From: a virus
Lineage: Duplodnaviria; Caudoviricetes
Length of the DNA: 58,858 bases
Reading direction: 5' to 3' (one strand)
IMG/VR virus record: IMGVR_UViG_3300025626_000030
Location: 1 to 58,858 of that record
Part shown: in pieces, positions 14,037-31,238 of the stretch
How positions within the stretch are numbered: the first letter of the stretch is position 1
Layout: the number at the start of each line of letters is the position of its first letter
Translations under genes and position numbers: made by a program
Notes under the pieces: model-generated
Databases searched by the model: none
What the model saw: only the letters and a program-made list of their open reading frames with translations
Told to the model about the DNA's origin: nothing

Positions 14037-14132
14037 ATGGCTACCTAATTCCGAGAGGTACCATAGCAGGGGCGCTTGCACGCCCTTTTCGGAATAATCC
14101 TAGCTACAGGTGTTGTATTACAAGGGGGAGTA

Positions 14133-14858: not shown

Positions 14859-14878
14859 TTTAATTTCCTAATTTTAGT

Positions 14879-15825: not shown

Positions 15826-16226
15826 TATTTTTTCCTCACTGTTACTACGTACTCTGAATCTACATTAAGACCTTTTGGTGTAAGGTCGGGGTTTTCTTCT
15901 AGGAACTGCTTCATGTTTGCCTGATTGAGGCGCTTATCAAGTAGCTCCGGTGCCCCATGCTCTAACACAAACTCGTGCATGTTGCTCCAATCGCTAGTCC
16001 AATACCTAGTCTTGGCAGACCTATAAAACATTCCTTCTGAAGTCTTTACACTATCTACGCCTTGCGTCTTACAGAAATCTAACATGGCCTTCTTTACTTC
16101 GTCTAACTGATCGGACAACTTACTGTCCTTCTCTTTAAACTCTGCTGTTAGCTCCGCTCTCTTAGCCTTGATCTTATGGAAGACCTTGGTGAGTTTCTCA
16201 ACAGGGGCGCTGCTTTCATCGTTCAT
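15825..16226 (-). CDS. Conserved phage hypothetical protein
   Basis: 133 aa with an N-terminal coiled coil and a GGAGAGAG RBS; translationally coupled to the next gene. Confidence 0.7.
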   Translation of the reverse strand: MNDESSAPVEKLTKVFHKIKAKRAELTAEFKEKDSKLSDQLDEVKKAMLDFCKTQGVDSVKTSEGMFYRSAKTRYWTSDWSNMHEFVLEHGAPELLDKRLNQANMKQFLEENPDLTPKGLNVDSEYVVTVRKK

Positions 16227-16255
16227 TGCTCTCTCCTATTAGTGACAGGGCGTCC

Positions 16256-16284
16256 ACTTTAGTACCATCTAATACCCTAGTCAA
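16256..16284 (-). promoter_or_regulatory. Sigma70-like promoter for the SSB/primase operon
   Basis: Minus strand reads TTGACT-N17-TAAAGT, overlapping the helicase stop. Confidence 0.5.
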
Positions 16285-17812
16285 GTATTTCTTTGTAAAG
16301 ATCAATCATTTTTGTGTGTACGTTGATTCTGTTATCGAGTAATGCGTAAACACGTTTCTCGGCGTGGGAACCTTGGAGTTGGACGACGGTACATTTGTGA
16401 TCTTGCCCTGATCTGTGTACACGGGCGTTTGCCTGAGCGTATGTCTCCAGTGAACTCGTCGGTGCCCACCACACTACTGTATTAGCCGCAGTTAACGTGA
16501 CGCCGTGCGCTGCTGACTGAGGTTGGATCACTAGCACCTTGGGATCTTCTTGCTCTTGGAACCGCTTAAATATCTCAGTTCGTTTGGGGGCTGGTACGTC
16601 CCCCCGTATAACGTCTACAGTTATGCCATCGTCCCGTAGTTTGGCGGTTAGCATGTCGATGGTGTGTTTAAACGGTACGAACACTAGTACCTTTTTACTG
16701 GACTCATCTATCACTTCCCGTAGCACTTTGTATCGAGGAGCTATATCGAACTGCACTGCATCACCCTTGTCGGTGTACACTGCACCCGCAGATATTTGCA
16801 GGAGTTTGTTCATGTTGACCGCCGCGTTAGCTGCTGTGACTTGCTCCCCCGCTGCCTCCATGACCATCTTGCTCTTTAGTTCTTTGTAGTACTTCTTTTG
16901 TTGGCGTGTTAACTCCACCTCACGCTTCACATACACCATCGGCGGAAGGTCTAGGCATTCTTCTTTCGTAAACCGTATAGCGGGTTGCAACACTCTATGC
17001 ACCGTTGTGGTAGCGTCTTCTTTCGGTGCCCACTTAAAGTTAGTTATCTTTCTCATAACTTGGTCGCGGAAAGAACCAAAGAACTTAGGTACGGCAGTGG
17101 GGTTAACAAGTCTGGCTATGCCATACGCATCTGTAGGACTCTGTGCCGCAGGAGTACCCGTCATCATCCATAGCCAAGTACTTGGGCCAACTAACCTGTT
17201 GAGCGTCTTCCATCGGGTAGTCTGAGGGTTCTTGTAGTGGGTAGCTTCGTCTATGATTATTAGGTCAAAGCCCCCGTTGGCGATAGCGTCCTCTACAATA
17301 GCCAACCCGTCATAATTTATTATCACGTACTCAGCCTCACCTTCAATTACCGCACGCCGTTTCTTAGCTGCTCCGTACGCCACATCTACTTTGCGGTGCA
17401 TGGCAAAACTAAAGAGGTCATTCCTCCATGCGGAATCCATGATGGATAGGGGGCATACCACCAACACACGTCTTATGACGCCTTGGTCGATTAGGTAGTC
17501 AGACGCCCATATAGCACTAGCGGTCTTGCCTGTACCCTGCTCGTTAAAGCAAAACGCCTTACGGTTAAGTGTTAGGAAAGAGGCGGTGGTCTTCTGGTGG
17601 TCGAACGGCGCGTACCTACCTGACCACTCGTACCTAGATTCTATGGGGGATGGCGCGTTGATGTTCATGTTGCGTAACACCTGAGTCTCCTCCAATCCCC
17701 AGTTAACAAGTACTTGGTTGTTCGGTAGTTCTTTGCTTTTAGGTATCACCGCAGTAACTCTTGATGGGTTACGTAGGGTGAGTAGTAATGCCTTATCGTC
17801 TACTATCTTCAT
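16277..17812 (-). CDS. SNF2-family (SF2) helicase
   Basis: EQGTGKT, IIIDEATH, MMTGTP, HGVTLTAA and QANARVHRSGQ motifs. Start chosen at MKIVDD after GGAG. Confidence 0.9.
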   Translation of the reverse strand: MKIVDDKALLLTLRNPSRVTAVIPKSKELPNNQVLVNWGLEETQVLRNMNINAPSPIESRYEWSGRYAPFDHQKTTASFLTLNRKAFCFNEQGTGKTASAIWASDYLIDQGVIRRVLVVCPLSIMDSAWRNDLFSFAMHRKVDVAYGAAKKRRAVIEGEAEYVIINYDGLAIVEDAIANGGFDLIIIDEATHYKNPQTTRWKTLNRLVGPSTWLWMMTGTPAAQSPTDAYGIARLVNPTAVPKFFGSFRDQVMRKITNFKWAPKEDATTTVHRVLQPAIRFTKEECLDLPPMVYVKREVELTRQQKKYYKELKSKMVMEAAGEQVTAANAAVNMNKLLQISAGAVYTDKGDAVQFDIAPRYKVLREVIDESSKKVLVFVPFKHTIDMLTAKLRDDGITVDVIRGDVPAPKRTEIFKRFQEQEDPKVLVIQPQSAAHGVTLTAANTVVWWAPTSSLETYAQANARVHRSGQDHKCTVVQLQGSHAEKRVYALLDNRINVHTKMIDLYKEILD

Positions 17813-18053
17813 TTGTCGCTCCGATGCGAAATAGCATGAAGTGGGTGTCCACGTCACGCGAAAAAATTTAGTGGCCCTGCTTCGTCCATAGATAGGGCTA
17901 GGTCTACTTATGATGGAAAACGTGAAAATTCCACGAAACACGCTACCGTTGGACTACTCGATTTTATGGCGCTTTATATGCCCTCTTAACGGGAGCACGC
18001 CATCATTTAAAGACGCATCAAGCACGCGTCAACCCATACCAATAGGGAGTTCT

Positions 18054-18329
18054 TTACTTAGGCTTTCTACTGCCTTTCTTTTTGTAGTTCCGGCTACGGT
18101 TAGTAGAGCTATCCTCTACTGTAACACCATCTTTGTTGGTGCCGCCATTGACTAGGGCTTTCTTGTGACTAACGTCTTTACCTTCCCGCTTGTCAGCCTT
18201 GCCATTGCCGTTGGCGTCTTTGCCTTTCTTATCCATAGCACGTCTGGCACGCTGTCGCTCCATTCGGCGTTCAAACGTGTCACTCCCTACAGGAGCATTG
18301 ACTTGTTTCTTTCTTTTTCTAGGACGCAT
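18054..18329 (-). CDS. Small HNH-like endonuclease
   Basis: KDVSHKKALVNGGTN...NRSRN HNH-type pattern. Start at MRPRK overlaps the exonuclease stop. Confidence 0.6.
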   Translation of the reverse strand: MRPRKRKKQVNAPVGSDTFERRMERQRARRAMDKKGKDANGNGKADKREGKDVSHKKALVNGGTNKDGVTVEDSSTNRSRNYKKKGSRKPK

Positions 18330-19000
18330 TAGTGTCTTCCGTTGTGTACACATTCTGTCACTAGGCAGTGACGTTTACATAGCCCACTTTGGTGTGCGTT
18401 CCACACATCTTTCTCGAACGCTTTCTCCATACGGCTATAGTCTGACAACCATTTAGACCACAGTTTAGCTTCATCTGGCTTGTTGTAAGTGCCTGTTACT
18501 AACTCACCACACACAACAAACACGAGACCCCCCCGGACAAACTGTATTTCGGGGTAGTGTTTAAACACTGCGAGGGCCATCAACTCTAACTGCCCTTTAT
18601 CTGCGTATCGTGTGTTCTTGCTGGTCTTGTAGTCTATCACCCAAGCTGTCTTGGCTTCTCTATCCAGTATAACTAAATCGGCTATGCCCCGCCACCACAC
18701 ATTATCATCCCTAAATCCACAGGGGTCTAGGTTCTCAGTAAGCCCCATCTCTAACTCACAGAGCTTCTCACCTGACTTAGCCATCAACGCATCGAGAACA
18801 TCTTTACAGTAACCGTACTTAGCGGGGAGCGGCGTGCCGTCCCTAACGTATTCCTCTGCGGCGAGGTGTACGGCGGTGCCATATAGCATCGCCTCTGTCT
18901 CAGGTTCTTTATAGTCCTTAGCCACCTTCAAGTGATAGAACTTCTTAGGACACTGTTCAAAAGACTTAATCTTTGAGAACGACCACGGCGCTATACCCAT
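18329..19000 (-). CDS. PD-(D/E)XK Cas4/RecB-like exonuclease
   Basis: SFSKIKSFEQCP, GTAVH, GIADL...IDYKT, QLELMA and a C-terminal CxxxCxxxxC. Confidence 0.85.
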   Translation of the reverse strand: MGIAPWSFSKIKSFEQCPKKFYHLKVAKDYKEPETEAMLYGTAVHLAAEEYVRDGTPLPAKYGYCKDVLDALMAKSGEKLCELEMGLTENLDPCGFRDDNVWWRGIADLVILDREAKTAWVIDYKTSKNTRYADKGQLELMALAVFKHYPEIQFVRGGLVFVVCGELVTGTYNKPDEAKLWSKWLSDYSRMEKAFEKDVWNAHQSGLCKRHCLVTECVHNGRH

Positions 19001-19227
19001 CAGTGTTTCTCCACAAACATCGAACTTACTATTGTTAGTTCACGTATCAATACGTCTAGTTGCTCTACCTCTAGGAATACAGCATTAATGTGTGTCTTTT
19101 TACCATGTGTCAGGCACTGCTCTACGCAAACTACAGGATCTCCGTCATCATCCTCACCCACCATTATCGCCAAGTAGTCGCCCGTTGTTTCTGGGAATTT
19201 GTCAGGGAACTTAATAATCTCACCCAT
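19000..19227 (-). CDS. Hypothetical protein
   Basis: 75 aa, overlapping start/stop coupling on both sides. Confidence 0.6.
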   Translation of the reverse strand: MGEIIKFPDKFPETTGDYLAIMVGEDDDGDPVVCVEQCLTHGKKTHINAVFLEVEQLDVLIRELTIVSSMFVEKH

Positions 19228-19426
19228 TAACGTATACTCCCACTATCCCGCCCAACACAAACAACCCAACCCACCCGCACGCCGAAACCACGGTGGGGCT
19301 AAACAACAGACCGTATACTCGCGTAGCAAACGTATCGCCAACGCGGTGTCTAAACATAGTCGCCTTCCGTATCTCTCGATCTGCAAACCTATTGGCTTCC
19401 CGTACTGCTCTTTTAATATCGCTCAT
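19220..19426 (-). CDS. Small membrane protein
   Basis: 68 aa with a C-terminal hydrophobic stretch; coupled to the polA stop. Confidence 0.55.
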   Translation of the reverse strand: MSDIKRAVREANRFADREIRKATMFRHRVGDTFATRVYGLLFSPTVVSACGWVGLFVLGGIVGVYVNG

Positions 19427-21258
19427 CCCGCTGCCTCTCCATATGATTTACCACTGTCTGACTCACACGTTATCGGTAAGCCCTCTGCCCAATCGGGCGT
19501 AACACGCATACAACTTTCAATGAATGCCTGTCCTCGTACTAAGTCGTCAGTAGGTACGCAACACACTAATGAATCGTGTACGGTCAATGCTACCTTCTCC
19601 TGTTTGGCAACAGCCAACATCTGCTCACCGATGATACACCTAGCGATAGCCTGACACACGTTCTCACATAACTTACCGCCATAGATGCGGGTGTACCCGC
19701 GCCGAGTCTTGTACCTAAACTCCGGCCCGTGCTCCCCCTGCTCAAAATCTAACCCGTCATAACGCATAACCAAACCGGACGGCAGTAGTATTCCCATACC
19801 CGTAGCGGTTTCGACGGATTTAATAATCCCGTTCGGCCCAAGGGACATGGTTTCTCCACGGGACATTTTTACTATCATCTGTTGTAAGTCACGCCATAAC
19901 TTGTTTATCTTCCAGTTAGCGTCTCGGTAGATGTTAACTACCCTACGCCCCTCCTCCAACGGCATGACGTGACCAAATGTAGCCAACTGCTCTACAAACC
20001 TAACCGCTCCCATACCATAGCCACACCCTAGGATAGTCGTTTTGCCCACAAAGCGTTGCTCTTTGGTAACATCTTCTTCCGGTATGTCGTAAATCTTCGA
20101 CGCCATCTTTATATAAACGTCTTCCCCGTTCAGGAAAGCTGATACCAGATCATCCTGCCCAGCTACCCACGCCAACACCCGTGCCTCAATCTGCGAGGAG
20201 TCACAGTCAACCATCGTATACCCTTCGGGGGCAAGCATACTGTTCTTTAACTTCTTACCGTTCGTACCACGACTAGGTAGGTTCTGGATGTTGATCTTGT
20301 CATCGCCTCCCCACCTACCCGTATGCGCGGCGTAGTATCTTATCGGTACCGGCATTAGTCCGCGCTTGGCTATACCTATAAACCTCTCAGTACGCGACTC
20401 CTCCAACGTACTCTTGGTGCCTAACCTAGATGTTACCAATGTCTGTACCCTATGATCGGGGTGGTCAGCCAATGCCTTGAACTGCTCGTCACTCTTAGCA
20501 AACGCATAGGTCTGCTTACCAGTCGTTAGACTCTTCTTCATGGGGGGTATAACACCTAACCCCTCAAGTAACTCAGCGAACTTAGGGTTACTCATCAGCT
20601 CCTTCTTAGTCGCACCAGAAGACGCTATCAGGTCTTCTTTAATTTGCTTGGTAGATTCTAAGTGGTGCTCCAACAAGCCAAGGTCTAACTCTAGTATAGG
20701 GTCTACGAACATACGTAACGTGCAATCAATGATGCGTAGTTCTTGCTTGGGAAACCCTCTACCCATAATGTTAAACAATCTGTACGTTAACTCTACGTCA
20801 TTGATACAGTAGTCGCCATAACTGCTTAGTTCTTCTACGGTGAAATCTGTTCGGCGTTTACCGAGGGCGTCGAGTACTTCTGTTCCCTTCTTACCGATGT
20901 TATATCTTTCAGCGAGTGCAGCGAGTGATCCACCAACCTCAACCCCGTGTAAAGCACGGGCCATACACAAAGTATCACCGAGCAAGCGAGGATGCACATC
21001 AAACAACCAACTAAGAATAGCCCCATCGAACATAGTGTTGTGGCATAGTAGGATAGAGTTGGCCCAATCGAACGAGTGTAGATACTCTTTAAGTTCTTCG
21101 TGTGTGCCACTAGCCCACTCCGTTCCACCGTTGTTTACTTTTATACCTATACCGATCACCTCAAAGCGAGGGTCACGGATATAGGATTCAGTTGTCATCT
21201 TTCTTAAAGAGAAGTCTTTGTCATAATACGTTTCCAGATCAACCGTTATCAAGTCCAT
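19423..21258 (-). CDS. polA: DNA polymerase family A with 3'-5' exonuclease domain
   Basis: Exo I VDLET, HTGRWGG...NIQNLP, motif A DSSQIEARV, motif B RFVGKTTILGCGYG, motif C TVHDS. AGGAGG RBS before MDLIT. Confidence 0.92.
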   Translation of the reverse strand: MDLITVDLETYYDKDFSLRKMTTESYIRDPRFEVIGIGIKVNNGGTEWASGTHEELKEYLHSFDWANSILLCHNTMFDGAILSWLFDVHPRLLGDTLCMARALHGVEVGGSLAALAERYNIGKKGTEVLDALGKRRTDFTVEELSSYGDYCINDVELTYRLFNIMGRGFPKQELRIIDCTLRMFVDPILELDLGLLEHHLESTKQIKEDLIASSGATKKELMSNPKFAELLEGLGVIPPMKKSLTTGKQTYAFAKSDEQFKALADHPDHRVQTLVTSRLGTKSTLEESRTERFIGIAKRGLMPVPIRYYAAHTGRWGGDDKINIQNLPSRGTNGKKLKNSMLAPEGYTMVDCDSSQIEARVLAWVAGQDDLVSAFLNGEDVYIKMASKIYDIPEEDVTKEQRFVGKTTILGCGYGMGAVRFVEQLATFGHVMPLEEGRRVVNIYRDANWKINKLWRDLQQMIVKMSRGETMSLGPNGIIKSVETATGMGILLPSGLVMRYDGLDFEQGEHGPEFRYKTRRGYTRIYGGKLCENVCQAIARCIIGEQMLAVAKQEKVALTVHDSLVCCVPTDDLVRGQAFIESCMRVTPDWAEGLPITCESDSGKSYGEAAG

Positions 21259-21427
21259 CGTCATCCTCCTTGTCTTTGGGCACAGGACGTACCTCTTTGG
21301 GCGTAGAACGTACCTTATCTTTCTTCTTATTAAAGATGTTGTCCCAGTTATCCGCAAATGTACCTGCCGTGGGACGTTGCTTGTCCCCCTTACCACCGTG
21401 CGTATGACCTCTACTCATAATCTTCAT
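21239..21427 (-). CDS. Small basic protein (GKGDKQRP-type)
   Basis: About 60 aa; its N-terminus is duplicated in ORF 21997..22548. Confidence 0.6.
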   Translation of the reverse strand: MKIMSRGHTHGGKGDKQRPTAGTFADNWDNIFNKKKDKVRSTPKEVRPVPKDKEDDDGLDNG

Positions 21428-21428
21428 T

Positions 21429-21581
21429 CTATATATCCTTAAATGTAATTGCTTTGAAGCATTGTAAGTAAAAGTCTTTTATATCATTTCTCTCTTGCCA
21501 GAGAATTAAAGCTGGAACATAGACCGGTGAGATAATTAAATTTAGAATACCAAGACCAAAGTATTTAAGTTTCTTTTTCAT
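21429..21581 (-). CDS. 50-aa membrane peptide (not in the ORF track)
   Basis: Hand-translated MKKKLKYFGLGILNLIISPVYVPALILWQERNDIKDFYLQCFKAITFKDI*; fills the gap between neighbours. Confidence 0.55.
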   Translation of the reverse strand: MKKKLKYFGLGILNLIISPVYVPALILWQERNDIKDFYLQCFKAITFKDI

Positions 21582-21828
21582 TACTATTCCTTTTGCGCCT
21601 AGAATAAACTGTCAGCGACAAGCTAAAACATAGCCATTGCAACCCTATGTCTGTAGTTTCCCAAGGCTTAAACCTACCGCCATTTGTAACAGGGTTAGGC
21701 AGCCAAAACCACCAGTTGCGGCCAAAACGCGGCCTGCTTTTAGCGTCTAGCTCCCACTGTTCAAACTCAACGCCTTTACTGCTGCCAGCAACAATTAGGT
21801 TTATAAATATGTAATCGGTAATCTGCAT
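21565..21828 (-). CDS. Hypothetical Trp-rich protein
   Basis: 87 aa with GGAGGAA RBS, in the AT-rich islet. Confidence 0.5.
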   Translation of the reverse strand: MQITDYIFINLIVAGSSKGVEFEQWELDAKSRPRFGRNWWFWLPNPVTNGGRFKPWETTDIGLQWLCFSLSLTVYSRRKRNSNEKET

Positions 21829-21830
21829 TA

Positions 21831-22025
21831 CTATTCCTCCATATCAAATTCAAATGCTTCATCAAAGCCATTCATTATGTATTCAGCAATGCAGTTTGTT
21901 ATTGTATATTCATCAGGGGTATCGGTATGCTTGTGCGCCCTATGATAACCTGCACATGTACCTTGCTCGACTATCTGCTCTATCAGTTTATAAATTTTAA
22001 TTCTCATTGCGATACTCCACCTCAT
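21831..22025 (-). CDS. Hypothetical phage protein
   Basis: GYHRAHKHTDTP motif; true start probably MRIKIY. Confidence 0.6.
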   Translation of the reverse strand: MRWSIAMRIKIYKLIEQIVEQGTCAGYHRAHKHTDTPDEYTITNCIAEYIMNGFDEAFEFDMEE

Positions 22026-22548
22026 CTTGCATTACTTTGTACATAGCTGGACGCATGGTTTTCTGCTGCGTGTCTAAGATAGCTCTAAGGTGGTATGGGT
22101 TTAAGCCAGCAATTGTCACATACCTCAAAGGCTCGTCACCCTCCTTGCCGTAAGTTCCCCATTTGGCATGCAGCCTTATCACTTCGTGGGGGTAGTCGGT
22201 ATAAATAGTTAGCAGCTCTTCGTCGCCGTTAGCAGAGCATCTAACGTAGTCACAGCCGCCATCAAGCATGTACTCTTTGCCGTTGGCATCTGTATGGGTC
22301 ACATAATCGTGACGATGGATGGATTCAAGTATTGTGCCGTCAGGTGTCCGCATTCTACTGTTTAATATTGCTAGCTTTTCTTTCTTCTCCTTCTCTCTTC
22401 GTAATAATTCTGAACCACAGGGTTCTTCTCTACCTGTCTTCTTCTTACCAAAGATAGCATCGTAGTTATCTTCGTACTTCTTTTTGTCTGTGGGGCGTTG
22501 CTTGTCCCCCTTACCACCGTGCGTCTGGCCTCTACTCATAATCTTCAC
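21997..22548 (-). CDS. Hypothetical protein (GKGDKQRP peptide fused to a conserved phage domain)
   Basis: TPDGTILESIHRHDYV...MLDGGCDY domain follows the duplicated N-terminal peptide. Confidence 0.65.
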   Translation of the reverse strand: MKIMSRGQTHGGKGDKQRPTDKKKYEDNYDAIFGKKKTGREEPCGSELLRREKEKKEKLAILNSRMRTPDGTILESIHRHDYVTHTDANGKEYMLDGGCDYVRCSANGDEELLTIYTDYPHEVIRLHAKWGTYGKEGDEPLRYVTIAGLNPYHLRAILDTQQKTMRPAMYKVMQDEVEYRNEN

Positions 22549-23113
22549 CCACTAACTCGATAAGGCGTGACAGGTACCACTCAGCTTTCTGGAGGTCTTG
22601 CAGTGGGTCGTAAGCGTGCTTGGTCTCATAGCGCCAGAGGTACTTCATGCAGTTGCCCTTGAGATAGCCCGCGAACGCTGCGGTAGTCATGCTCTCCTCA
22701 ATAGCTTCGATACACTCGATGAGACCTGACTTGTAGTGGTCGGGGTTTATAGCATCGTCTTTCTCGTCTTCTTCAGCTATATCAGCAGCATCTGTTTCCC
22801 GCATGTACTTGTTATACTCTTCTTCGGCGTCTTCTTCTTTTCCCCAGTGTGTGGCAGCGCACTCCAACCACTTTGCTTTGTCTAGCGAATATGCTGCGGC
22901 GTCTCGCTCTTCTTCGGCTGCGTCCAGATACACCCGCATAAGAGACTCATCTATTGTTGGCGTTGCGGCTTTAACAGCCTCTGCACCTAGGTTAAACCCT
23001 TGCTCCACCGCTTCTACCACAAAGTCTACTATTGCGGGACTTTCTTTTCGCAGTCTTTCCCATTCGGCATCCAACGCGCCGCGTACTTTGGATTCTGATT
23101 TTTCATTGCCCAT
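22532..23113 (-). CDS. DUF3310 / T7 gp1.7-like nucleotide kinase domain protein
   Basis: INPDHYKSGLIECIEAI...GYLKGNCMKYLWRY...DLQKAEWYL. Confidence 0.75.
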   Translation of the reverse strand: MGNEKSESKVRGALDAEWERLRKESPAIVDFVVEAVEQGFNLGAEAVKAATPTIDESLMRVYLDAAEEERDAAAYSLDKAKWLECAATHWGKEEDAEEEYNKYMRETDAADIAEEDEKDDAINPDHYKSGLIECIEAIEESMTTAAFAGYLKGNCMKYLWRYETKHAYDPLQDLQKAEWYLSRLIELVGEDYE

Positions 23114-23403
23114 TTGTGTTCTCCGAGTAATTTTTCTATGTCGTTCATATTGGTTTCGTTTACTACGTACGCTAACCCGTACGCAGCGTTTATCTGGTCT
23201 AGGTTCATCTGCTGTAAAGCTGTTGGTGTGTTCTTACCCGCCTTACATTCGATACCAAAGAACTTCCCGTTGTAGCAACCTACTATGTCAGGCACTCCGC
23301 TCTTACCATATCCCCCAGTAGCAGGGAAAAAGTAGTAACACCCTAACGCTTTCAGTTGCTCAACTATCTTCTTCTTGACCTTACCTTCCGGCGTCATCGC
23401 CAT
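23029..23403 (-). CDS. VRR-NUC domain nuclease (Holliday junction resolvase-like)
   Basis: TPEGKVK...GVPDIV...IECKA...PTALQ. Confidence 0.85.
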   Translation of the reverse strand: MAMTPEGKVKKKIVEQLKALGCYYFFPATGGYGKSGVPDIVGCYNGKFFGIECKAGKNTPTALQQMNLDQINAAYGLAYVVNETNMNDIEKLLGEHKWAMKNQNPKYAARWMPNGKDCEKKVPQ

Positions 23404-23602
23404 ACTTATCTCCCATCTCCTTTACTTCTTTAACAGCGGACTCTATTCGTAGTAGGGTATCCCAACACGGCGCGTTTACCTTATTAATAAAACTGGACAC
23501 CGTGTTGATGTGTACTCCTGCTATGTCTGCTATATCCTGACGCCTACGGGATACGTAAGCGTCTATTCTTATTTTTTCGTAGATCGGATAAAGGTCGCTC
23601 AT
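23381..23602 (-). CDS. XRE/Cro-like helix-turn-helix protein
   Basis: RQDIADIAGVHINTVSSFIN...P..DTLLRI pattern. Confidence 0.7.
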   Translation of the reverse strand: MSDLYPIYEKIRIDAYVSRRRQDIADIAGVHINTVSSFINKVNAPCWDTLLRIESAVKEVKEMGDKYGDDAGR

Positions 23603-23614
23603 TGATACCAGTTC

Positions 23615-23803
23615 TCAGTTCGGGCGGGGGCAGTAACCTTGTCCCGCAGTGGTTATGTACACGGTGTTAGTTCCCCAACCTGACTTCCATTGGCATATTA
23701 CATCCCCAGAAGGGTACCGTTGTTCAGATATTTTTGTCCACCAGTTAGCATTGGCGGTGCTTGCTAGGGTTAATAGTGTTGCTATCAATAGATACTTCTT
23801 CAT
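23615..23803 (-). CDS. Small secreted protein with two cysteines
   Basis: Signal peptide MKKYLLIATLLTLASTANA, then about 43 aa with C...CP; GAGGA RBS. Confidence 0.65.
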   Translation of the reverse strand: MKKYLLIATLLTLASTANANWWTKISEQRYPSGDVICQWKSGWGTNTVYITTAGQGYCPRPN

Positions 23804-23846
23804 ATGTACATCCTCAGTTGTTTTGTATACATGTGTATACAGTTAG

Positions 23847-24125
23847 TTATTTCAATACCCAAAAAGTGTGTTCGTCAATACGCCTACCAACACCTTCTAT
23901 AGTGGGGGTCGGTGGAGTGGGGTCGCATAGGCATAACGCAGCAACGCGCCCTGCCAGCCACTCGGGTAACTCATTTACCTCATAGTAGCGCAGCATTTGC
24001 TCCTCGTCAACACAGTCTATGCCTATACATGTCACCTCGGCCTTATTGGTGGCGGTAAGTATCTTTACCCTGTAGATAGTATCAGTACCGTCAGGATCAC
24101 CCATAAACGTATCAGTCTGTGACAT
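23847..24125 (-). CDS. Hypothetical protein sharing a C-terminal motif with its upstream neighbour
   Basis: LPEWLAGRVAALCLCD...IEGVG; start probably MSQTDT. Confidence 0.6.
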   Translation of the reverse strand: MSQTDTFMGDPDGTDTIYRVKILTATNKAEVTCIGIDCVDEEQMLRYYEVNELPEWLAGRVAALCLCDPTPPTPTIEGVGRRIDEHTFWVLK

Positions 24126-25122
24126 AGAATATAGTCCTGTCGTAGTGGTAACCAACACCTTCTATGTATTCCTTCTCATCGCACATAGATAGTAGGGATA
24201 ACTTACCTGCAACCCATTCGGGTAGAGTGTCTTCGGTGTACTCAATCGTATCGCCTATCTCCTTACCTGAGTGAGTCATAGAGTAGTTGGGGTTGCGATT
24301 AATGCCATCCATCATGGCCATACTAAATACCTGTCTACCCCTAGACTCGTACACACGCACACAGTAATCGGTAGCGGCTGCACGTTGAGCGTTAGCTGAC
24401 TCATACGCCGCCATCTCATCACGTAGCTGTCTAAGGTGGGTCTCGAACTCCTTGTTAAGAAACCCCGTACCCATATCCAGTAGGTGAACCAACTCCTTAT
24501 ATAACGGCATAGCTTGCGTGTTCTTTACGTTGTAAGACTTGACCCCAATTTCATCGGTCAGTAGGTCAGCGTTACGGCGTAACTTGTCGAGTCCCTGTCT
24601 CGCTGCGGTAACGTACTCTTCCCGCGTTATCATAGTCAACTCCTTATGCGTTACCCTGCGTAGGTACTTCTTGGCGTTCTTGATCGCCTTGTTTATATCT
24701 TTTGACGCCGCTGAATACCGCTCACGCTTGCCTCTAGCGTACTTGTTGTTGTCTACGGTGTGACTCCACACGGTGTATATCAACTCGGAGTCTATAGTTA
24801 CTGTGTTCTCACCCCACCTGTACTTGGCGGGGTCATGGACGGTTATTACACCCATACAAAACGTATCTTCTGGCATGTATACGAATGCCCTAAACGTCTC
24901 AGTACCCGCTGCGTACCCCTCTACTACTTCGCACCCTCGGAATGCTTTCTTTACCCCATCCACAAACTCCATGAACTTGGGGCGTGCGCACGCTCTTGCG
25001 GTGTTTACAGTATCTACGTAACCAGAGCGAGTACTAAGCGCATCTACTCTATAAAAGTACGCCTCCTCGTACGTCCCCGCTTTAACTTTCGCCCGCGTTT
25101 CTGCTGGTCTAATTTCAGCCAT
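24112..25122 (-). CDS. Hypothetical early protein
   Basis: 336 aa; C-terminal LPEWVAGKLSLLSMCD...IEGVG. Confidence 0.7.
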   Translation of the reverse strand: MAEIRPAETRAKVKAGTYEEAYFYRVDALSTRSGYVDTVNTARACARPKFMEFVDGVKKAFRGCEVVEGYAAGTETFRAFVYMPEDTFCMGVITVHDPAKYRWGENTVTIDSELIYTVWSHTVDNNKYARGKRERYSAASKDINKAIKNAKKYLRRVTHKELTMITREEYVTAARQGLDKLRRNADLLTDEIGVKSYNVKNTQAMPLYKELVHLLDMGTGFLNKEFETHLRQLRDEMAAYESANAQRAAATDYCVRVYESRGRQVFSMAMMDGINRNPNYSMTHSGKEIGDTIEYTEDTLPEWVAGKLSLLSMCDEKEYIEGVGYHYDRTIFYVTD

Positions 25123-26330
25123 TACATATCTCCCGATTTGATGTGTACTGCCTTACCTACATCCGGTACGGCAAACTTGTTATTGAGTATTGTCCACAAC
25201 ACGGGACAGTCCCACTGACCCCAACCGGAATACAAATCCCCGTCAGTCAACACAACACACGCCTGTGGTTTGATGCTGTGCTCGGTCATGTAGTCGGTGA
25301 CACACGTAACATCAGTGCCACCACCTCCCGCTGGTTTGGTGGACGTAACCAGACCGTCTAACTCGTCTAGTGCATACACCTCGTCACCCACTACCTTGTG
25401 ACCCCAGTACAGTAAGCGTATCTTTTCAGGGTGTACGGTGTCACATATAGCCTTGACCTCTGATAGGAACGCGGTCAGGTCTGCCCGTTGTATGGAACCG
25501 GACGTGTCAACTGCGATCACTAACTCGCCAACCTGCTGACTGATACCAGTAGGCATATAGATACCCTGACTCATTAACCTACGGTTGGGGCGTGCGTATG
25601 TAGAGTAGTCACTACCTGCACACGTAGTCTGGATAAACTCACGCAACACCTCGCGCCAATCTACCTGCGGCTGTAGTAACTCGTCCAGACCTAGGTCACC
25701 CGTAGAACCTACCTTACCTGCGACCATCGCGCCCTGACGTATAGCCTCGTCAATGTCTCGCGCCAACTCGCGTTGCTCCTCCTCGGATAGTTCCTGCGCA
25801 CCTTCCCAGTCGTGCTCGTCCATACCACCTGACCCGTTAGTGGGTGTGCCTCCACCCTCCCCGGTAGACCTTTCGTTCTCTTCCATGTCCTTACGTATTA
25901 GGGTGAACACTTGAGCACTGTCCATGCCAGAGTACTTGTCATCTATAAGCCCCCCATCGGGTAGCTTGGCGAACCCATCGCGGTTGTCATCCCTGATCTT
26001 GAGGTTGATCACGTAGTCGCACGCCATGTTAGCGGTATGCGCGTCTATCTGCCACAGATGCTTCCATGTAGTTAGGTGACTGTATAGCTTGTGATAGTTC
26101 TCGTGTAGTACCAACCCACGCAATTCGGGGTCGGTCAGGCCAGCTACAAACGCACGTCCGTACTTCTCATCACGTCCATTAGTACACGCCGTAGATACGT
26201 CGTCACATATAGTCTTGTCGCCGATCATCAGTATGCCCGCTAGTGCTACATACTTGGGGTTACCCATGATGGCCACGACTGCCTTAGACAGTCGCTCTTC
26301 TGCTGAAAGTTTCTTACCGATAGCTAACAT
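25122..26330 (-). CDS. DUF2201-like metallopeptidase plus vWA domain protein
   Basis: TACTNG, HENYH (HExxH), NMACDYVIN, MIDAS motif DTSGS, GGGGTD and LTDG. Confidence 0.85.
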   Translation of the reverse strand: MLAIGKKLSAEERLSKAVVAIMGNPKYVALAGILMIGDKTICDDVSTACTNGRDEKYGRAFVAGLTDPELRGLVLHENYHKLYSHLTTWKHLWQIDAHTANMACDYVINLKIRDDNRDGFAKLPDGGLIDDKYSGMDSAQVFTLIRKDMEENERSTGEGGGTPTNGSGGMDEHDWEGAQELSEEEQRELARDIDEAIRQGAMVAGKVGSTGDLGLDELLQPQVDWREVLREFIQTTCAGSDYSTYARPNRRLMSQGIYMPTGISQQVGELVIAVDTSGSIQRADLTAFLSEVKAICDTVHPEKIRLLYWGHKVVGDEVYALDELDGLVTSTKPAGGGGTDVTCVTDYMTEHSIKPQACVVLTDGDLYSGWGQWDCPVLWTILNNKFAVPDVGKAVHIKSGDM

Positions 26331-26518
26331 TATATTCTCCCCGTAAATACTCGGATTCTACGTCCACATCTGAAACACCCTGACACCCAGTCACCGTTAG
26401 GTTGGGAGCACCGGCAATACCTATCGCGGCGCTCCTCTACGGTGGTGTACTTGCCACTTGTCCTAAACTTGCTAGGGTGTAACCTGAGTTGTAGCATTTC
26501 GCTACGTGTGATCTTCAT
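26330..26518 (-). CDS. Small zinc-finger-like protein
   Basis: CRC...CFRC; start MKITRS overlaps the ATPase stop. Confidence 0.5.
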   Translation of the reverse strand: MKITRSEMLQLRLHPSKFRTSGKYTTVEERRDRYCRCSQPNGDWVSGCFRCGRRIRVFTGRI

Positions 26519-27597
26519 ACCACGTCTGCCGCGAACATGTAGTTGTTCTTCATCGCCCACTGCGTAAAGTTCTTACTCTGCATTACGATGGAACGCTTGG
26601 CGTAGCTGTTGCTGCGTACACCCATAGCGAATAGACCCTGCGCTTCCTTATCGAGTCGCTCCAAGTACGTCACCCAGTTATCCACCCAGTCACGATCCAT
26701 AGCACCCAGTGCTCGGTACACAACCATACACACTGCCGATGCTGACTCGGGTACCTTGGCGTCGAGTGGTGACTGCTTAATAGAGGATAGACTAGGTAGC
26801 TGGTCTGCTAACTTGACAAACGCCATCATGTCCATAGCTGCGCGGTCACCTATCGTACCCATCAACGCTGCTGTTAACGTGTTGTCATCTAAGTGCTCAC
26901 GTTGGTGAAGCCAATCACTCGCAGCTTCCAACGAGCGGGGGGTAACAAAGGCGGCGCGTTGCTGCTTGGGGTGGTAGATGTACGGGTTGTCATCAGGGTT
27001 CTTCACATCCTCGAAGCCTTGCATTACTTGTGGGAACTCACGTACGAAACCTAACACTGACGGATGAAAGTTGTTGTTGATGCCATAGTCGATCCACTCG
27101 GTAGCGTCTGACTTACGCATGGTAACAACAGACATACGGTTACGGGCATGGGGAGGGATAATGTCACCTACACCCTCTGCACCTAGGTTGGTGGTTGCGA
27201 ACACGATGCTACCCTCGGGTAACTTCTTAGTGCCTACCTTACGTTCTAGCATGGTGACTAGCGTACCCAACTTGACTGCTGGATTGCCCTTACCCCACTC
27301 ATCGAACATCAGGATCACTGGCTTGTCTAGGTGAATACCAAACTCCTCATTGGGTAGGTAGGACACATAGCCTTCTTCTGTATTGAGGTTAGGGATACTA
27401 AGATCGCCTAGGTCTTTCGTCGTGCAATCAAAGTAGCACGGTACATGGTTGGGGAACTTATCTGCTAACGTCTTTAACAGCGTTGACTTACCAGACCCCA
27501 TATGCCCTTGGACTAACACGGTGCGCTCGGTGCCGCCTGTTGCGATTAGGTTTACAGTCTGGTCGATAGATAGTGCGTACATAGCTGATGTATTCAT
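26515..27597 (-). CDS. MoxR-like AAA+ ATPase
   Basis: Walker A GHMGSGKS, Walker B LMFDE, ATTN sensor, ARNR and TPRS. Confidence 0.85.
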   Translation of the reverse strand: MNTSAMYALSIDQTVNLIATGGTERTVLVQGHMGSGKSTLLKTLADKFPNHVPCYFDCTTKDLGDLSIPNLNTEEGYVSYLPNEEFGIHLDKPVILMFDEWGKGNPAVKLGTLVTMLERKVGTKKLPEGSIVFATTNLGAEGVGDIIPPHARNRMSVVTMRKSDATEWIDYGINNNFHPSVLGFVREFPQVMQGFEDVKNPDDNPYIYHPKQQRAAFVTPRSLEAASDWLHQREHLDDNTLTAALMGTIGDRAAMDMMAFVKLADQLPSLSSIKQSPLDAKVPESASAVCMVVYRALGAMDRDWVDNWVTYLERLDKEAQGLFAMGVRSNSYAKRSIVMQSKNFTQWAMKNNYMFAADVV

Positions 27598-27648
27598 AAT
27601 AGTATTACTCTCTTGGTTAGTTTGTATACATATGTATACAGGTTGGTG

Positions 27649-27897
27649 TTACTTGTTAGTGACAGTGTGATCAACATCAAAGTCGTATTTGTCGAACACC
27701 ACATACTCACGGGTGTCCCTGTGCTTAAAGTGGTGCGCCACCTCGGTCGAGTACATATGCATATAGTCCTCGGGGTTGTCCATACCTAGGATAATAGCTT
27801 CCTCGAACGCTACATTGGATGCGCCCTCGGCACGTACACGTATTATACGGTCAACTACATTCTGCCACTTGGACGTACATGGGTTCTTAATTTTCAT
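27649..27897 (-). CDS. Hypothetical early protein
   Basis: 82 aa with YMHMYS...HHFKHRDTREY. Confidence 0.55.
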   Translation of the reverse strand: MKIKNPCTSKWQNVVDRIIRVRAEGASNVAFEEAIILGMDNPEDYMHMYSTEVAHHFKHRDTREYVVFDKYDFDVDHTVTNK

Positions 27898-28085
27898 TAG
27901 AACACCTCCATTACGCGACCGCTCTCGGTCACGACTTTATAGTAAGACACACGCGGGGTACGCGTAGTGCGTAGGTAGTTATAGTGCTTGGTGCGCTTGT
28001 AGTTGCGCACACGTAACACGGTCTGCCCGTCTAGGTTACCCAGTATGGGTCTGTCGCTTGAGTCGAACGCTTCAATATAAAACAT
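27897..28085 (-). CDS. Hypothetical early protein
   Basis: 62 aa with GGAGGAG RBS and TAATG coupling. Confidence 0.55.
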   Translation of the reverse strand: MFYIEAFDSSDRPILGNLDGQTVLRVRNYKRTKHYNYLRTTRTPRVSYYKVVTESGRVMEVF

Positions 28086-28258
28086 TACATCTCCTCCAGT
28101 TCATTAGCATCAGCAGACTCAGCTACCCATGAGAAATCCATATTGCGGCTACTAGTGAACAGCTTGACGCTACCGTCCTCGTTGAGTAACTCGTTACCGT
28201 CCTCGTCAACTTTGTAGAACTGTATGTCCCACACTGCGATTGAATATTTTTTGTCCAT
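28085..28258 (-). CDS. 57-aa acidic protein (not in the ORF track)
   Basis: Hand-translated MDKKYSIAVWDIQFYKVDEDGNELLNEDGSVKLFTSSRNMDFSWVAESADANELEEM*; GGAG RBS; fills the gap exactly. Confidence 0.6.
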   Translation of the reverse strand: MDKKYSIAVWDIQFYKVDEDGNELLNEDGSVKLFTSSRNMDFSWVAESADANELEEM

Positions 28259-28260
28259 GA

Positions 28261-29157
28261 TTACATCTCCAACGATGGTAGTAACTTGAGGGCGTTGTCT
28301 ACTACCCTTTTCGTTTCGACACGCAGTGTCTCGTTAGTACGTAACCCATCGGGTGTGACGCCACGGAGTGCCTCTTCTAGCGTCAGGCGCATCTGCTCCA
28401 TCTGGCTGTCACCTGTTACGTTACACACACTGAGCATATCAACCATGTCGAGCACGTTATCGACTAGGGTATCGCGGAACACTTTCTTCTTATCATCCCC
28501 GCTGTAATCGAGACGGTCGGACATATTGGTCAACGCCTTGTGCGTGCGCTGCCACACATCGTCCATAGCTGATACCAGTTGGCGTTGGTAGTAGTCGTTA
28601 TAGTGATCCTCCAACACCTGCTTCTGCTCATTGCCTACATCGACACGGAAGTCACCCACATCGGGTAAGGGTATATAAGAGATGCGGAACCCAAACTTGT
28701 TACTGATAGAGTCGGGCGTGGGGTAGTCATTGCGTACAAACAAGTCACCCAGCCGTGCCTGTGCCCTGCTTATCTCCCAATCGTAGTTGGTGACAAACAA
28801 ACCGGTCATGCGTCTGAACTCATCCTGCAAGTCGGTCATCTGTTGGTGATAGTCGAAGTACTGCGCGGTCGGTAGCAACCGCATACCCGTATCGCTCCAC
28901 GGCATAGTCATGCTGTAGTGTATGTTACGTGCATTAGCAGTGAATTTGTGGATGGCGTCTAACTCTTGGCAGTGACCTAATAACTTCTTACTCACTGCTG
29001 CGGTGCCCTTGTCCGCATAGTTCTGATCGGTAACAGTAGCAGAGGCACGCTTGTCCTTCTTACGTCCTGTCCACTGACTGACTTGTAGCTCTACTAACAT
29101 TGCACTCGATCCGATGGACGGTGCGCTTGCCTGTGGTGCATTAGATAATGTATTCAT
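28261..29157 (-). CDS. DUF3150-like protein
   Basis: LVELQVSQWTGRKKD...SKKLL...TMPWSDTGMRLLP...DYP pattern, upstream of the AAA/vWA pair. Family assignment is from recall. Confidence 0.6.
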   Translation of the reverse strand: MNTLSNAPQASAPSIGSSAMLVELQVSQWTGRKKDKRASATVTDQNYADKGTAAVSKKLLGHCQELDAIHKFTANARNIHYSMTMPWSDTGMRLLPTAQYFDYHQQMTDLQDEFRRMTGLFVTNYDWEISRAQARLGDLFVRNDYPTPDSISNKFGFRISYIPLPDVGDFRVDVGNEQKQVLEDHYNDYYQRQLVSAMDDVWQRTHKALTNMSDRLDYSGDDKKKVFRDTLVDNVLDMVDMLSVCNVTGDSQMEQMRLTLEEALRGVTPDGLRTNETLRVETKRVVDNALKLLPSLEM

Positions 29158-29213
29158 AATAGTATTGCTCTCTTGGTTGGTTTAGTTTGTATACATATGT
29201 ATACAGTTTGGTG

Positions 29214-29504
29214 TTACTCGGCTATGTCACTACATAACATTTGGATATTCTCGACCCGTGCCCGTGAAACGTGTACAAGGGAACCATCGAGACACACTTG
29301 CACATAGCGCCTAGTCATAAATATGACGTTACCAGACTCACCGGCTAGTGGGGCAGACAGAAGCACAATACCCTCTTTCTTGTTTATCCACTGCGTAGTG
29401 AAGCTGGCCATAGTCTGGCGGTAAAACTTTAACGTGTCACGGGTAAAGAAATGTTCTCCCAGTATGCCTGACTGCTTGATCTGCAAAGGGGTTGGCTTTC
29501 TCAT
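29214..29504 (-). CDS. Hypothetical early protein
   Basis: HFFTRDTLKFY motif; start MRKPT after AGGA; first gene behind the consensus promoter. Confidence 0.55.
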   Translation of the reverse strand: MRKPTPLQIKQSGILGEHFFTRDTLKFYRQTMASFTTQWINKKEGIVLLSAPLAGESGNVIFMTRRYVQVCLDGSLVHVSRARVENIQMLCSDIAE

Positions 29505-29603
29505 AATGTGTAATCCTATATCTGTTTTGTATACATATGTATACAAGTTGGGTTGCTTGTCAGCGACAAAAATGTAATGCGGTTAATCGCCTTTACATCA
29601 ACC

Positions 29604-29631
29604 ATTATACGCCCTTATCAGCTTATGTCAA
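29604..29631 (-). promoter_or_regulatory. Consensus sigma70 early promoter
   Basis: Minus strand reads TTGACA-N16-TATAAT, pointing into the early operon. Confidence 0.75.
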
Positions 29632-29668
29632 ATGTTACACAAACGTGTTGTTTGGTGGGTAGAAGTGT

Positions 29669-30043
29669 ATTGTTCTGTAATGTTCCATAATGTTCTACTG
29701 TGTAGGTGGGTAAGTCATTGATTTCCTTACAATGTTCCAATGTTCCTTTTTTAACAGAATTACTTGCCGATATATTTTGGCGTAAGAGAGTGGAACATTA
29801 GAAAGATTTCCAATAATAGCTAAGTAGTTTTTTCCAGCGGAACATTACAATTACTTTTTAAAGAAAGTATATATATAAGCACTTCTGCTCACTCCTGCAT
29901 ATGTAGCTTTATAGACTAACTGCCATTAGATACCACCAGATACAACCGCAGTATAATGTTCCACACTTTGTCCAAAAACGGGAACATTAGGGGAACATTA
30001 CGGGAACATTACAACTTTTTTGGAACATTACAAATGGAACAAT
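29669..30043. repeat. Array of about 13 GGAACATT/AATGTTCC octamers with an IHF-like site and AT-rich core (candidate origin)
   Basis: Exact copies at 29679, 29731, 29739, 29792, 29839, 29955, 29981, 29992, 30003 and 30022; variants at 29669, 29689 and 30036. Confidence 0.75.
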
Positions 30044-30101
30044 TGCTTGTATACATATGTATACACAAACGTGTCTAAACGTGCGTAGACGTGCCATGTC
30101 C

Positions 30102-30246
30102 GAGGCGCAACGCGGATCACCAACTGGTATCAACGTGTTATCCTGTGACGTATAACCTTGCCCGGGGCGGAGGCGCAACGCGGATCAACAACTGGTATCA
30201 ACGTGTTATCCCGCGAGGCGCTACGCGGATCAACAACTGGTATCAA
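30102..30246 (+). repeat. Three direct repeats of a 42-bp unit
   Basis: GAGGCGCAACGCGGATCA(C/A)CAACTGGTATCAACGTGTTATCC at 30102-30143 and 30170-30211; partial copy at 30215-30246. Confidence 0.9.
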
Positions 30247-30266
30247 AAAGTACTTTTTGGTAGGCG

Positions 30267-30292
30267 AAAAAAAAGCCCCCTTTCGGAGGCTT
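30267..30292 (-). terminator. Intrinsic terminator after ORF 30306..30911
   Basis: Minus strand reads AAGCCTCC-GAAA-GGGGGCTTTTTTTT. Confidence 0.8.
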
Positions 30293-30305
30293 ATATTGGT
30301 GGGTT

Positions 30306-30911
30306 TTAGTGAGATGGTTCGACCGGAGTATTTACAATCTTTAACGCTTTAGCCAGTAGTGCGGTCAGTGCTACAACATCGAAGGTAGGTGCCTCTTCGC
30401 CTTGAGCCTTTTTGTTTGCCTGAGTCAGTAACTCGATTATCTTCGTGTTGTTATTCGATGACGCCTCAGTCGGAGCGTTCGGAGTCTGAGGGGCTTTAGT
30501 CTTCGCGGTAGACTTGCTGGCCTTGTAAGCGGCATCCTGTCGCAATCGCATTGCGTTCCGATCATCGGTGACGTACTTATTAAGTTTGATGCTGACCGTT
30601 CGCTTGTCTGCCTTGTCGCTATCGCTCAGGGCTTTAGTCGGCGTCCCTGCTAGTTTGATAGCCTTCGCGCCCATGCCCTTCAGTCGCGCCGCCATGATAG
30701 CCAACCGTAGTTCGTTGTTCGCCGTGGACTTGCTACCGTCATGTTCTTTTCCTACCGGTATAAAGTCAGTCCATAGCATGCCATCGGCGTGCATTTGATC
30801 ATATGCCGCTTGAGCCGCTTTACGTGCTGAACTGTCGGAGCGTGTAGCTTTAGTCAATAAAGTTTCAGCGGCTTTAGTAAAACGTGTTGGGATAGTGTTG
30901 TCGTTATTCAT
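30306..30911 (-). CDS. Hypothetical Ala/Lys-rich early protein, monocistronic
   Basis: 201 aa with its own promoter-like sequence upstream and a terminator downstream. Confidence 0.7.
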   Translation of the reverse strand: MNNDNTIPTRFTKAAETLLTKATRSDSSARKAAQAAYDQMHADGMLWTDFIPVGKEHDGSKSTANNELRLAIMAARLKGMGAKAIKLAGTPTKALSDSDKADKRTVSIKLNKYVTDDRNAMRLRQDAAYKASKSTAKTKAPQTPNAPTEASSNNNTKIIELLTQANKKAQGEEAPTFDVVALTALLAKALKIVNTPVEPSH

Positions 30912-30963
30912 AATGATTTACTCTTTTAGTTTATCAACCGCGTGATTGCTGTTGATGGTTCCC

Positions 30964-30991
30964 ATAGTAACAGGTTTACGTGTGATTACAA
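30964..30991 (-). promoter_or_regulatory. Extended -10 promoter for ORF 30306..30911
   Basis: Minus strand reads TTGTAA-N16-TACTAT with TGn before the -10. Confidence 0.45.
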
Positions 30992-31238
30992 TAGATAGCC
31001 TGCTATCGCTGTATACATATGTATACTGAAACCCACGAATCGGCACAATCCGATACCCACCCCGCCCCCATGCACCACTTCAGACAGACCGGAGTCCCGT
31101 GTGCTCTTATATTACTAATATACTCAAATAAATCGTATTTTTCTCAAAATGGAACCCCCACCCCCTCTATATAGGAAGACCCCCCACATCACTTTAAAAA
31201 CACCTTGTGAAAAAAATTTTATACCTTATTATCAAGGT

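Follow-up and report, generated by a model that had tools for sequence, protein, structure and literature searches.

The question raised by this locus is what reads a palindrome that recurs six times in one part of a phage genome, and to what effect. The genome is that of a virus of the Caudoviricetes (Duplodnaviria), IMG/VR record IMGVR_UViG_3300025626_000030; the complete record of 58,858 bp, estimated to be 95% complete, was analysed and is referred to here as the window. Six copies of an 18-bp palindrome lie between 23.8 and 31.0 kb, mostly at gene junctions, and their sequence varies between related phages together with that of one gene, the lone open reading frame (ORF) at 30306–30911 on the minus strand, which is the first of the leftward genes and encodes a protein of 201 residues (P0001). 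From these sequence comparisons we think it probable that the palindromes are duplex-DNA operators for a dimer of this basic, all-helical protein, which would repress the early operon.

Each element is a dyad of 18 bp, with 8-bp arms (TGTATACA) and a free 2-bp centre. Scanning the whole window with TGTATACATATGTATACA and allowing up to three mismatches returns exactly six matches, all at 23.8–31.0 kb, against a shuffle mean of 0.02, and none of 100 shuffles reaches six; at up to two mismatches there is no seventh copy anywhere in the 58,858-bp record. The scan and shuffles thus bear out the original prediction that six copies lie in the early region, and the mismatch scan of the whole genome likewise finds none outside it, as had been claimed. 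Four dyads are exact (27623, 29188, 29528, and 30048), the copy at 23824 has a mismatch in the centre, and the one at 31010 has an altered last base; the coordinates first given for the six were correct except at the end of this last copy, which is 31027 and not 31026. The arm TGTATACA occurs 12 times in the window (1.22 expected), and because 11 of these fall inside the six dyads, with the lone arm only at 47837, the paired dyad is the unit. The copies in relatives vary mainly in the 2-bp centre, and the copy at 23824 is therefore a full site.

The sites, numbered here from right to left, occupy three kinds of position. Site 1 (31010–31027), in which the outermost base differs, lies in the divergent intergenic region, at a position that is also filled in relatives; it is situated just upstream of the promoter of ORF 30306–30911, where one copy had been placed, and its centre is about 61 bp upstream of the inferred transcript start. 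Site 2 (30048–30065) lies within an origin-like non-coding region with 47-nucleotide (nt) repeats on one side and GGAACATT iterons on the other, after a terminator and before the next promoter; only 18 nt separate it from the last GGAACATT iteron, in agreement with the description of one copy as adjoining an octamer array. The remaining four sites precede genes. Site 3 (29528–29545) is in the operon leader, at about +53 to +70 from the inferred start and 23 nt before the ATG at 29504, and the other three are between cistrons. Site 4 (29188–29205) follows the stop codon of 29214–29504 by 8 nt and precedes the ATG of the DUF3150 gene (28261–29157) by 30 nt, site 5 (27623–27640) follows the stop codon of 27649–27897 by 8 nt and precedes the ATG of the ATPase gene (26515–27597) by 25 nt, and site 6 (23824–23841), with a centre of TG on the plus strand (CA on the minus strand) in place of TA, follows the stop codon of 23847–24158 by 5 nt and precedes the ATG at 23803 by 20 nt. 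These gaps, read from the sequence, agree with the statement that four copies lie 20–30 nt upstream of the starts at 23803, 27597, 29157, and 29504, and the minus-strand flanks AAC and AAA are conserved around the dyads just as described. Sites 4 and 5 further share about 60–77 nt of flank (27597–27670 and 29157–29235), including the ribosome-binding leader and the first codons (MNT...), and the regulatory unit of these two sites seems to have been copied as a block.

The exact 18-mer is present in 43 IMG/VR stretches, often with three to five copies per contig. We gathered 70 related metagenomic loci (given here as L numbers) through the ATPase, with 46–89% protein identity; the layout is common to all 70, and with the window they make 71 loci. 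An inverted-repeat family of at least three copies is found in 56 of the 71, and most of the other 15 hold one or two dyads because those loci begin at or near the ATPase gene. In relatives that are 95–100% complete the dyads are confined to the early region, with eight within 6.7 kb in a genome of 60,188 bp, 11 within 13.3 kb in one of 58,245 bp, and five within 3.4 kb in one of 58,830 bp. An ATG-started ORF follows within 80 nt, in the direction of early transcription, at 141 of 210 distinct sites (31 of 210 on the mirrored strand), and the gap between site and ATG has a median of 20 nt, with quartiles of 17 and 24 nt. In many relatives a TATAAT lies some 55–65 nt upstream of the first operon dyad, and the dyads are therefore elements of leaders and gaps, not promoters themselves.

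Although the positions of the dyads are kept in relatives, their sequence and spacing are lineage-specific. At least 20 types were counted. Those with a 2-bp centre include TGTCTACA, TTATAACA, GTTAGGTA, GTTATACA, GGTAGTCC, GTTAGGGA, TTTAGGGA, GTTCTAAC, TTCGGGCA, GTTATAGG, GTTAGTAA, CCTGACCA, and CCTTACAG; others have the form TAGCCA-N-TGGCTA or centres of 3 or 5 bp. The arms are perfect in 194 of 224 distinct site contexts, most differences affect the centre or the outermost base, and the near-identity of the copies within each genome fits a sequence-reading factor acting in trans. We also note that a metatranscriptome contig (run X20) matches window positions 23816–23849, comprising the dyad of site 6 and only a few flanking bases, and then continues into sequence resembling the leader of the 295-residue gene in relatives, and that sample therefore contained a related phage carrying this dyad. 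In public RNA runs the region is partly present as low-depth assembled contigs, which do not give transcript ends.

The strongest contrast in the set is between two loci that are almost the same phage. L085 and L088 have 91–97% DNA identity across 17 kb, with the exception of the first early ORF, the positional homologue of ORF 30306–30911, which is unalignable at the DNA level. Every dyad also differs between them, being GGTAGTCC in one and GTTAGGGA in the other, and the exchange is clean, the flanks remaining identical as far as the neighbouring stop codon at one end and the ribosome-binding site at the other. The longer records of this pair (G005 and G001) agree over 21.9 kb, besides 0.9 kb that is extra in one. 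Two further contrasts (L057 with L055, and L054 with L063) show this pattern as well, but in them the break is limited to the N-terminal two thirds of the first early ORF, and the C-terminal part is 87–91% identical; the N-terminal domain (N-domain) is therefore the part that is swapped. Across the 65 pairs in which the ATPase is at least 85% identical, N-domain identity is 21–46% in all 45 pairs with different dyads, whereas it is 58–100% in all 20 pairs with the same dyad, without overlap, although the 65 pairs are not independent and reduce to five separate backbone contrasts (L085/L088, L055/L057, L054/L063, L096/L101, and L049/L066). A gradient is seen relative to the window as well: N-domain identity is 59% and 57% where the arms are the same, 52% with one change per arm, and 44%, 25%, and 15–16% as the half-site diverges further, while ATPase identity stays at 74–78%. 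By eye, an IG[SAG][KR] motif where the long helix begins is a candidate counterpart of GTTA-type arms.

Replacement of all the dyads together with the N-terminal half of one protein points to a putative regulator and its operators, with a specificity that would change rapidly. As for how such exchanges arise in otherwise similar genomes, we favor the explanation that frequent homologous recombination among co-circulating relatives would homogenise the genes, with selection holding each regulator to its own sites. Of the possibilities raised in the original prediction, operators for a dimeric regulator is thus the one to which the comparisons lend most weight, with the lone ORF 30306–30911, which co-varies with the dyads, as the probable partner and not the XRE-like ORF that had been offered beside it.

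The protein itself is unfamiliar. Residues 1–135 of the ORF 30306–30911 product form the variable, basic, helical N-domain, beyond which come a disordered linker and, at the C-terminus, a helical hairpin. AlphaFold predicts the N-domain with a pLDDT of 93.8 and a pTM of 0.79, as helices with a small hairpin. It is basic in 21 of 24 homologues (median net charge +7), and the C-terminal part is neutral. The protein has no family match in Pfam, PHROGs, or NCBIfam, and none of its 64 close homologues has a name; among 1.84 billion representatives, a profile search returned 462 clusters (at 50% identity) at E <= 0.001, 240 of them at E <= 1e-10, and the members are almost all 160–220 residues long. 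A 40-sequence alignment has no invariant column, and M1 and G79 alone are at least 90% conserved; the lack of any invariant residue beyond the start methionine argues against an enzyme. Foldseek searches of PDB and BFVD with the whole protein and with the N-domain gave nothing at E <= 0.001, and VIA-align gave Z scores of up to 6.3 for the C-terminal hairpin only, with a best Z of 5.3 for the N-domain. Several sigma region-4 helix-turn-helix chains align with residues 61–125 at Z 4.3–5.2, scores that do not rise above noise when proteins are helical. Against PDB sequences, a profile search found two weak coiled-coil matches, and a protein atlas returned unnamed viral clusters only, with DUF3102, at 0.84, as an unconfirmed lead. 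In a Pfam scan of 40 family members NusA_N appeared in eight, with a best E of 0.0094, which we take as noise, and in a second scan, of 40 remote members, nothing was above the cut-off.

The arrangement of the locus suggests how such a regulator might work. ORF 30306–30911 has a promoter and a terminator of its own, and its product should therefore appear first. The inferred promoter (30964–30991, minus strand), read from the sequence, consists of TTGTAA, a 16-nt spacer, and an extended -10 (TGt-TACTAT); with eight of 12 consensus matches it was not listed by the consensus scan, and the pattern is kept in L053, L056, L066, and L067. The intrinsic terminator 3' of the gene (30273–30292, minus strand) is clear in the terminator scan. 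The long leftward early operon then starts from a sigma-70-type promoter at 29604–29631 on the minus strand (TTGACA, 16 nt, TATAAT). As the protein accumulated it would occupy the dyads, a dimer contacting the two 8-bp half-sites and leaving the 2-bp centre unread, and would obstruct passing RNA polymerase, with the early operon turned down gene by gene in a stoperator-like manner. Four of the presumed operators are inside the leftward operon, either behind the consensus host-type promoter or between cistrons; because these dyads are downstream of a promoter or between genes, and the next gene follows too closely for a promoter in between, hindrance of polymerase is the simplest effect. Site 1, upstream of the regulator's own promoter and between the early and structural blocks, could provide feedback in either direction or act on an opposing promoter for the structural genes, and site 2, in the origin-like region, suggests a possible tie to replication. 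We infer from all of this that the protein binds the dyads, that it does so as a dimer on DNA rather than on RNA, and that the effect is repressive, a block of early-operon transcription being the most likely form.

Several observations weigh against such a reading. The N-domain has no significant structural match, and gene content is the only ground on which the region at 23.8–31 kb is called 'early'. The best contrast pair is compared over 17–22 kb, and a second co-varying gene could sit elsewhere in these genomes. Proteins paired with identical dyad arms can differ widely in sequence, as in L088 and L094. The spacing between dyad and start codon is tight even at site 3, where the long leader would permit other positions. 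Moreover, some of the loci L053–L064, those whose main dyad is TGTATACA or GTTAGGTA, carry a single TTATAACA-type dyad before a 295-residue gene (for example L054:11106–11123 and L057:10949–10966), although their own regulator type should not read TTATAACA, which is the type found throughout L052 and L055; this odd dyad may be an unconverted operator or a tolerated mismatch, or else the target of a second factor.

The tight spacing is also the best argument for a role in RNA, in which the dyads act as hairpins 5' of the ribosome-binding site and control translation, processing, or stability, either with the ORF 30306–30911 protein or with none. Such hairpins, which were the second option of the original prediction, would be in the sense direction a median of 20 nt before a start codon at four of the six window sites and at 141 of 210 sites in relatives, symmetric changes in both arms preserve a hairpin as well as a DNA dyad, and a basic protein could bind RNA. 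The spacing follows largely from the very short intergenic gaps, however, and sites 1 and 2 are outside the inferred transcripts, one upstream of a promoter and the other in the gap between a terminator and the next promoter. A bare hairpin would need neither one sequence at all sites nor a switch across the genome in step with a protein domain, and these two features together require a factor that reads sequence. The stem sequence is conserved and the centre variable, the reverse of most recognition of RNA hairpins by proteins, and arms that are read around a free centre are the pattern of a dimer on duplex DNA. In addition, just four of 36 mismatched arm pairs are of the G.U type, the predicted hairpins are weak and uneven (-3.2 to -11.3 kcal/mol across 20 types), and the intrinsic-terminator pattern is present at none of the six sites (0 of eight terminator-like hits). 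We consider an RNA role quite unlikely on these grounds, and do not favor that option. Somewhat less improbable, although still unlikely, is that the protein binds the DNA dyads and activates, either by promoting read-through or restart at junctions or by acting on its own promoter as a class I-type activator. The centre of site 1 is at about -61 relative to the inferred transcript start, and the -35 of that promoter is weak; some dyads of relatives are directly after intrinsic terminators and directly before a ribosome-binding site, where expression needs read-through or a new start, and the weak structural likeness of the N-domain to sigma region 4 would suit an activator. Against this, the 20–30 nt between dyad and gene include the ribosome-binding site and are too few to accommodate a promoter, the promoter of the operon matches the consensus perfectly (12 of 12) and therefore needs no activator, and the distance from site 1 to the -35 ranges from 15 to 25 nt among relatives, such that there is no fixed helical phase.

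Far less probable, in our view, is that the main role of the dyads is to shuffle early accessory genes, either as recombination anchors or as mobile cassettes of regulation, in the manner of PeSL elements, which was the third option. Units of site, leader, and small ORF between the operon promoter and the DUF3150 gene do vary in number (none in L054, one in the window and L057, and two in L066), and the flank, leader, and first codons shared by sites 4 and 5 would fit the movement of a cassette. The one indel examined, however, does not break at a dyad: the closest relative, L048 (about 96% DNA identity), carries a 449-bp insertion with two small ORFs (L048:797–1244, compared with window 29500–29504), and the break is at the start-codon sequence ATGAG. 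Because the insertion directly follows the ATGAG at the start of the first operon gene, a different first gene is driven by the leader and start codon that the two phages have in common. The six dyads also lack the promoter or terminator of a PeSL, and there is no need for anchors to co-vary with a protein domain. For that part of the original prediction the differing unit number speaks in favor and the one breakpoint against, and any shuffling of cassettes would at most be a by-product, secondary to regulation. Hardly more than marginal is the prospect that another factor reads the dyads, be it the XRE-like ORF at 23381–23602, a protein of the host, or one that the phage encodes beyond the loci compared. 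The XRE-like ORF follows site 6 and has a weak match to a LacI-type helix-turn-helix (E 2e-5, below the cut-off), and the best contrast pair allows only a partial genome comparison of 17–22 kb. But this ORF is present in only two of the 25 window-and-relative loci tabulated, the window and L048, and therefore cannot be the general partner; L053–L059 have the same dyad without it. A host factor does not explain different dyads in phages with 91–97% identical DNA, and within the 17–22 kb of the best pair the first early ORF is the sole gene that has diverged.

Some further candidates were considered and dropped. A likeness of the dyad to the LexA box does not hold, since the spacing is wrong and the dyads in relatives are unrelated. 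A repeat resembling a target-site duplication beside one L088 dyad is in A/C-rich low-complexity flanks, and the protein lacks catalytic residues. A palindrome-transposase pair of the REP/RAYT kind would have a conserved HUH motif and tyrosine, and the 40-sequence alignment of the family has no invariant column. Promoters for a T7-like phage polymerase were rejected because the dyads are symmetric and no polymerase or sigma family is found in 60 ORFs.

With operators for the ORF 30306–30911 protein as the preferred reading, the surrounding genome deserves description. The leftward genes (11202–30911) encode a primase-helicase, a Gp2.5-like single-stranded DNA-binding protein, an SNF2 helicase, an exonuclease, a family A DNA polymerase, and an N4 gp24-like ATPase with DUF2201/VWA and DUF3150 neighbours, and the rightward genes from 31149 encode terminase, portal, capsid, tail, and lysis functions. 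The trio at 24112–29157 (the DUF3150 protein, the N4 gp24-like ATPase, and the DUF2201 metallopeptidase/VWA protein) is also found in N4-like and other large phages at about 24–29% identity. RNA polymerase, sigma factor, and integrase families are absent among the 60 ORFs scanned, although a novel polymerase could reside in two giant ORFs that have no Pfam match. Giant ORFs occupy positions 1–885, 4586–10897, and 53188–58857; one encodes 2103 residues with a C-terminus that is DarB-like in PHROGs, and the second (1890 residues) is open at the record end and may continue in the frame that is open at the record start.

The 760-bp non-coding stretch after the ORF 30306–30911 terminator contains ten of the 12 genomic GGAACATT octamers and three 47-nt repeats. 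In this origin-like region (29679–30029 and 30102–30261) the octamers are on both strands, with 1.5 expected genome-wide, and the 47-nt repeat, GAGGCGCAACGCGGATCA..CTGGTATCAAC, is present in three copies adjoining them. Relatives retain AATGTTCC/AATGTTAC iterons and GATACCAGTT repeats with any dyad type, and because the iterons are kept regardless of the dyad they are probably read by a different, conserved protein. Between site 1 and the structural genes (31040–31105) there is a G-rich block (GGGGCGGGGTGGGTATCGGA on the minus strand) and a GGAGTCCC motif, both at the same place in most relatives; they may contribute to a late promoter or act as a packaging signal.

Judged by the terminase, the closest phages in culture are the Pelagibacter phages HTVC027P and HTVC023P, together with 023Pt_psg01 and DSL-LC04, at 44–47% identity. 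Within 14 kb on either side of the terminase gene, HTVC027P, 023Pt_psg01, and DSL-LC04 have neither a homologue of the ORF nor an inverted-repeat family of at least three copies, and the system is therefore not general to that group; a megablast search of GenBank phages with the 8.1-kb region gave no match.

Dispersed operators read by a single phage regulator are a known kind of system, and there are several with which to compare the dyads. In phiC31, the 17-bp inverted repeats known as CIRs include the autoregulatory operator of the regulator gene and recur at many intergenic positions in the early region; phiC31 differs in being a temperate phage of actinobacteria, with a repressor much larger than the ORF 30306–30911 protein. 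The KorA, KorB, and KorC proteins of IncP are small dimeric regulators with palindromic operators of 12–17 bp at many backbone promoters, although IncP is a plasmid and not a phage, and its sites are mostly at promoters rather than between cistrons. The stoperators of Cluster A mycobacteriophages (read by the L5 repressor gp71 and its relatives), as portrayed in PMC9283540, are short sites present in many copies in promoters and short intergenic gaps, where one phage protein stops transcription; the same paper gives them as asymmetric 13-mers bound by a monomer and active in one orientation only, which is tied to the direction of transcription, and site sequence and protein change together between lineages (PMC9283540 and PMC6550527). 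The likeness is close, in that the window has six dyads and the 95–100% complete relatives have five to 11, all in the early region, and here too the dyad and the proposed regulator shift together between lineages. However, the sites described here are symmetric 8+2+8 dyads and not asymmetric 13-mers, and no chain resembling a gp71-type repressor (an N-terminal helix-turn-helix and a second DNA-binding domain) is among the fold matches. Cluster A phages are also temperate and the protein is their immunity repressor, whereas no integrase is present among the 60 ORFs scanned here, and the cultured distant relatives of the window phage are described as lytic.

The PeSL elements of T4-type phages combine, according to PMC2839356, a strong sigma-70 promoter with a terminator stem-loop and mediate recombination. 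Like the dyads, they are short units repeated where small early genes meet, in variable regions, and gene content differs from one unit to the next. However, none of 11 promoter-like hits overlaps a dyad here, the consensus promoter being about 60 nt before site 3; the 9/12 promoter-like hits are about 140 nt upstream of site 6 and near the start of ORF 30306–30911. The dyads are, moreover, followed by sense-strand A-runs and not T-runs, and they co-vary with a protein. A word search of two papers on the cultured group (PMC9599517 and PMC12753301) found no mention of palindromes, operators, or promoters, and no published description of this dyad system was found among the papers searched. What is distinct in the present system is the combination of symmetric dyads, a protein of no known family, the absence of lysogeny genes, and many specificities in near-identical backbones.

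The analysis proposes a function for a conspicuous repeat of an uncultured clade of marine phages, and a testable one for a large protein family (462 clusters at 50% identity) with no Pfam family among those scanned. The clade further supplies many naturally occurring regulator–site pairs, some of which have nearly the same genetic background, and such material for learning how a DNA-binding domain reads its site is rare. The replacement of a whole operator set together also bears on the evolution of phage circuits under frequent recombination. As a tentative and by no means likely extension, the regulator/dyad pairs may constitute fast-diversifying compatibility groups in seemingly strictly lytic marine phages, under selection for new specificities and built on a new DNA-binding fold. 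If so, new specificities would serve, for example, to escape cross-regulation by co-infecting relatives or decoys of the host or of satellites, each switch would rewrite all five to 11 operators together in recombining, near-identical genomes, and the family would amount to a natural library of hundreds of orthogonal protein/site pairs. If the pairs are as specific as they look, they could be used as independent switches in engineered circuits.

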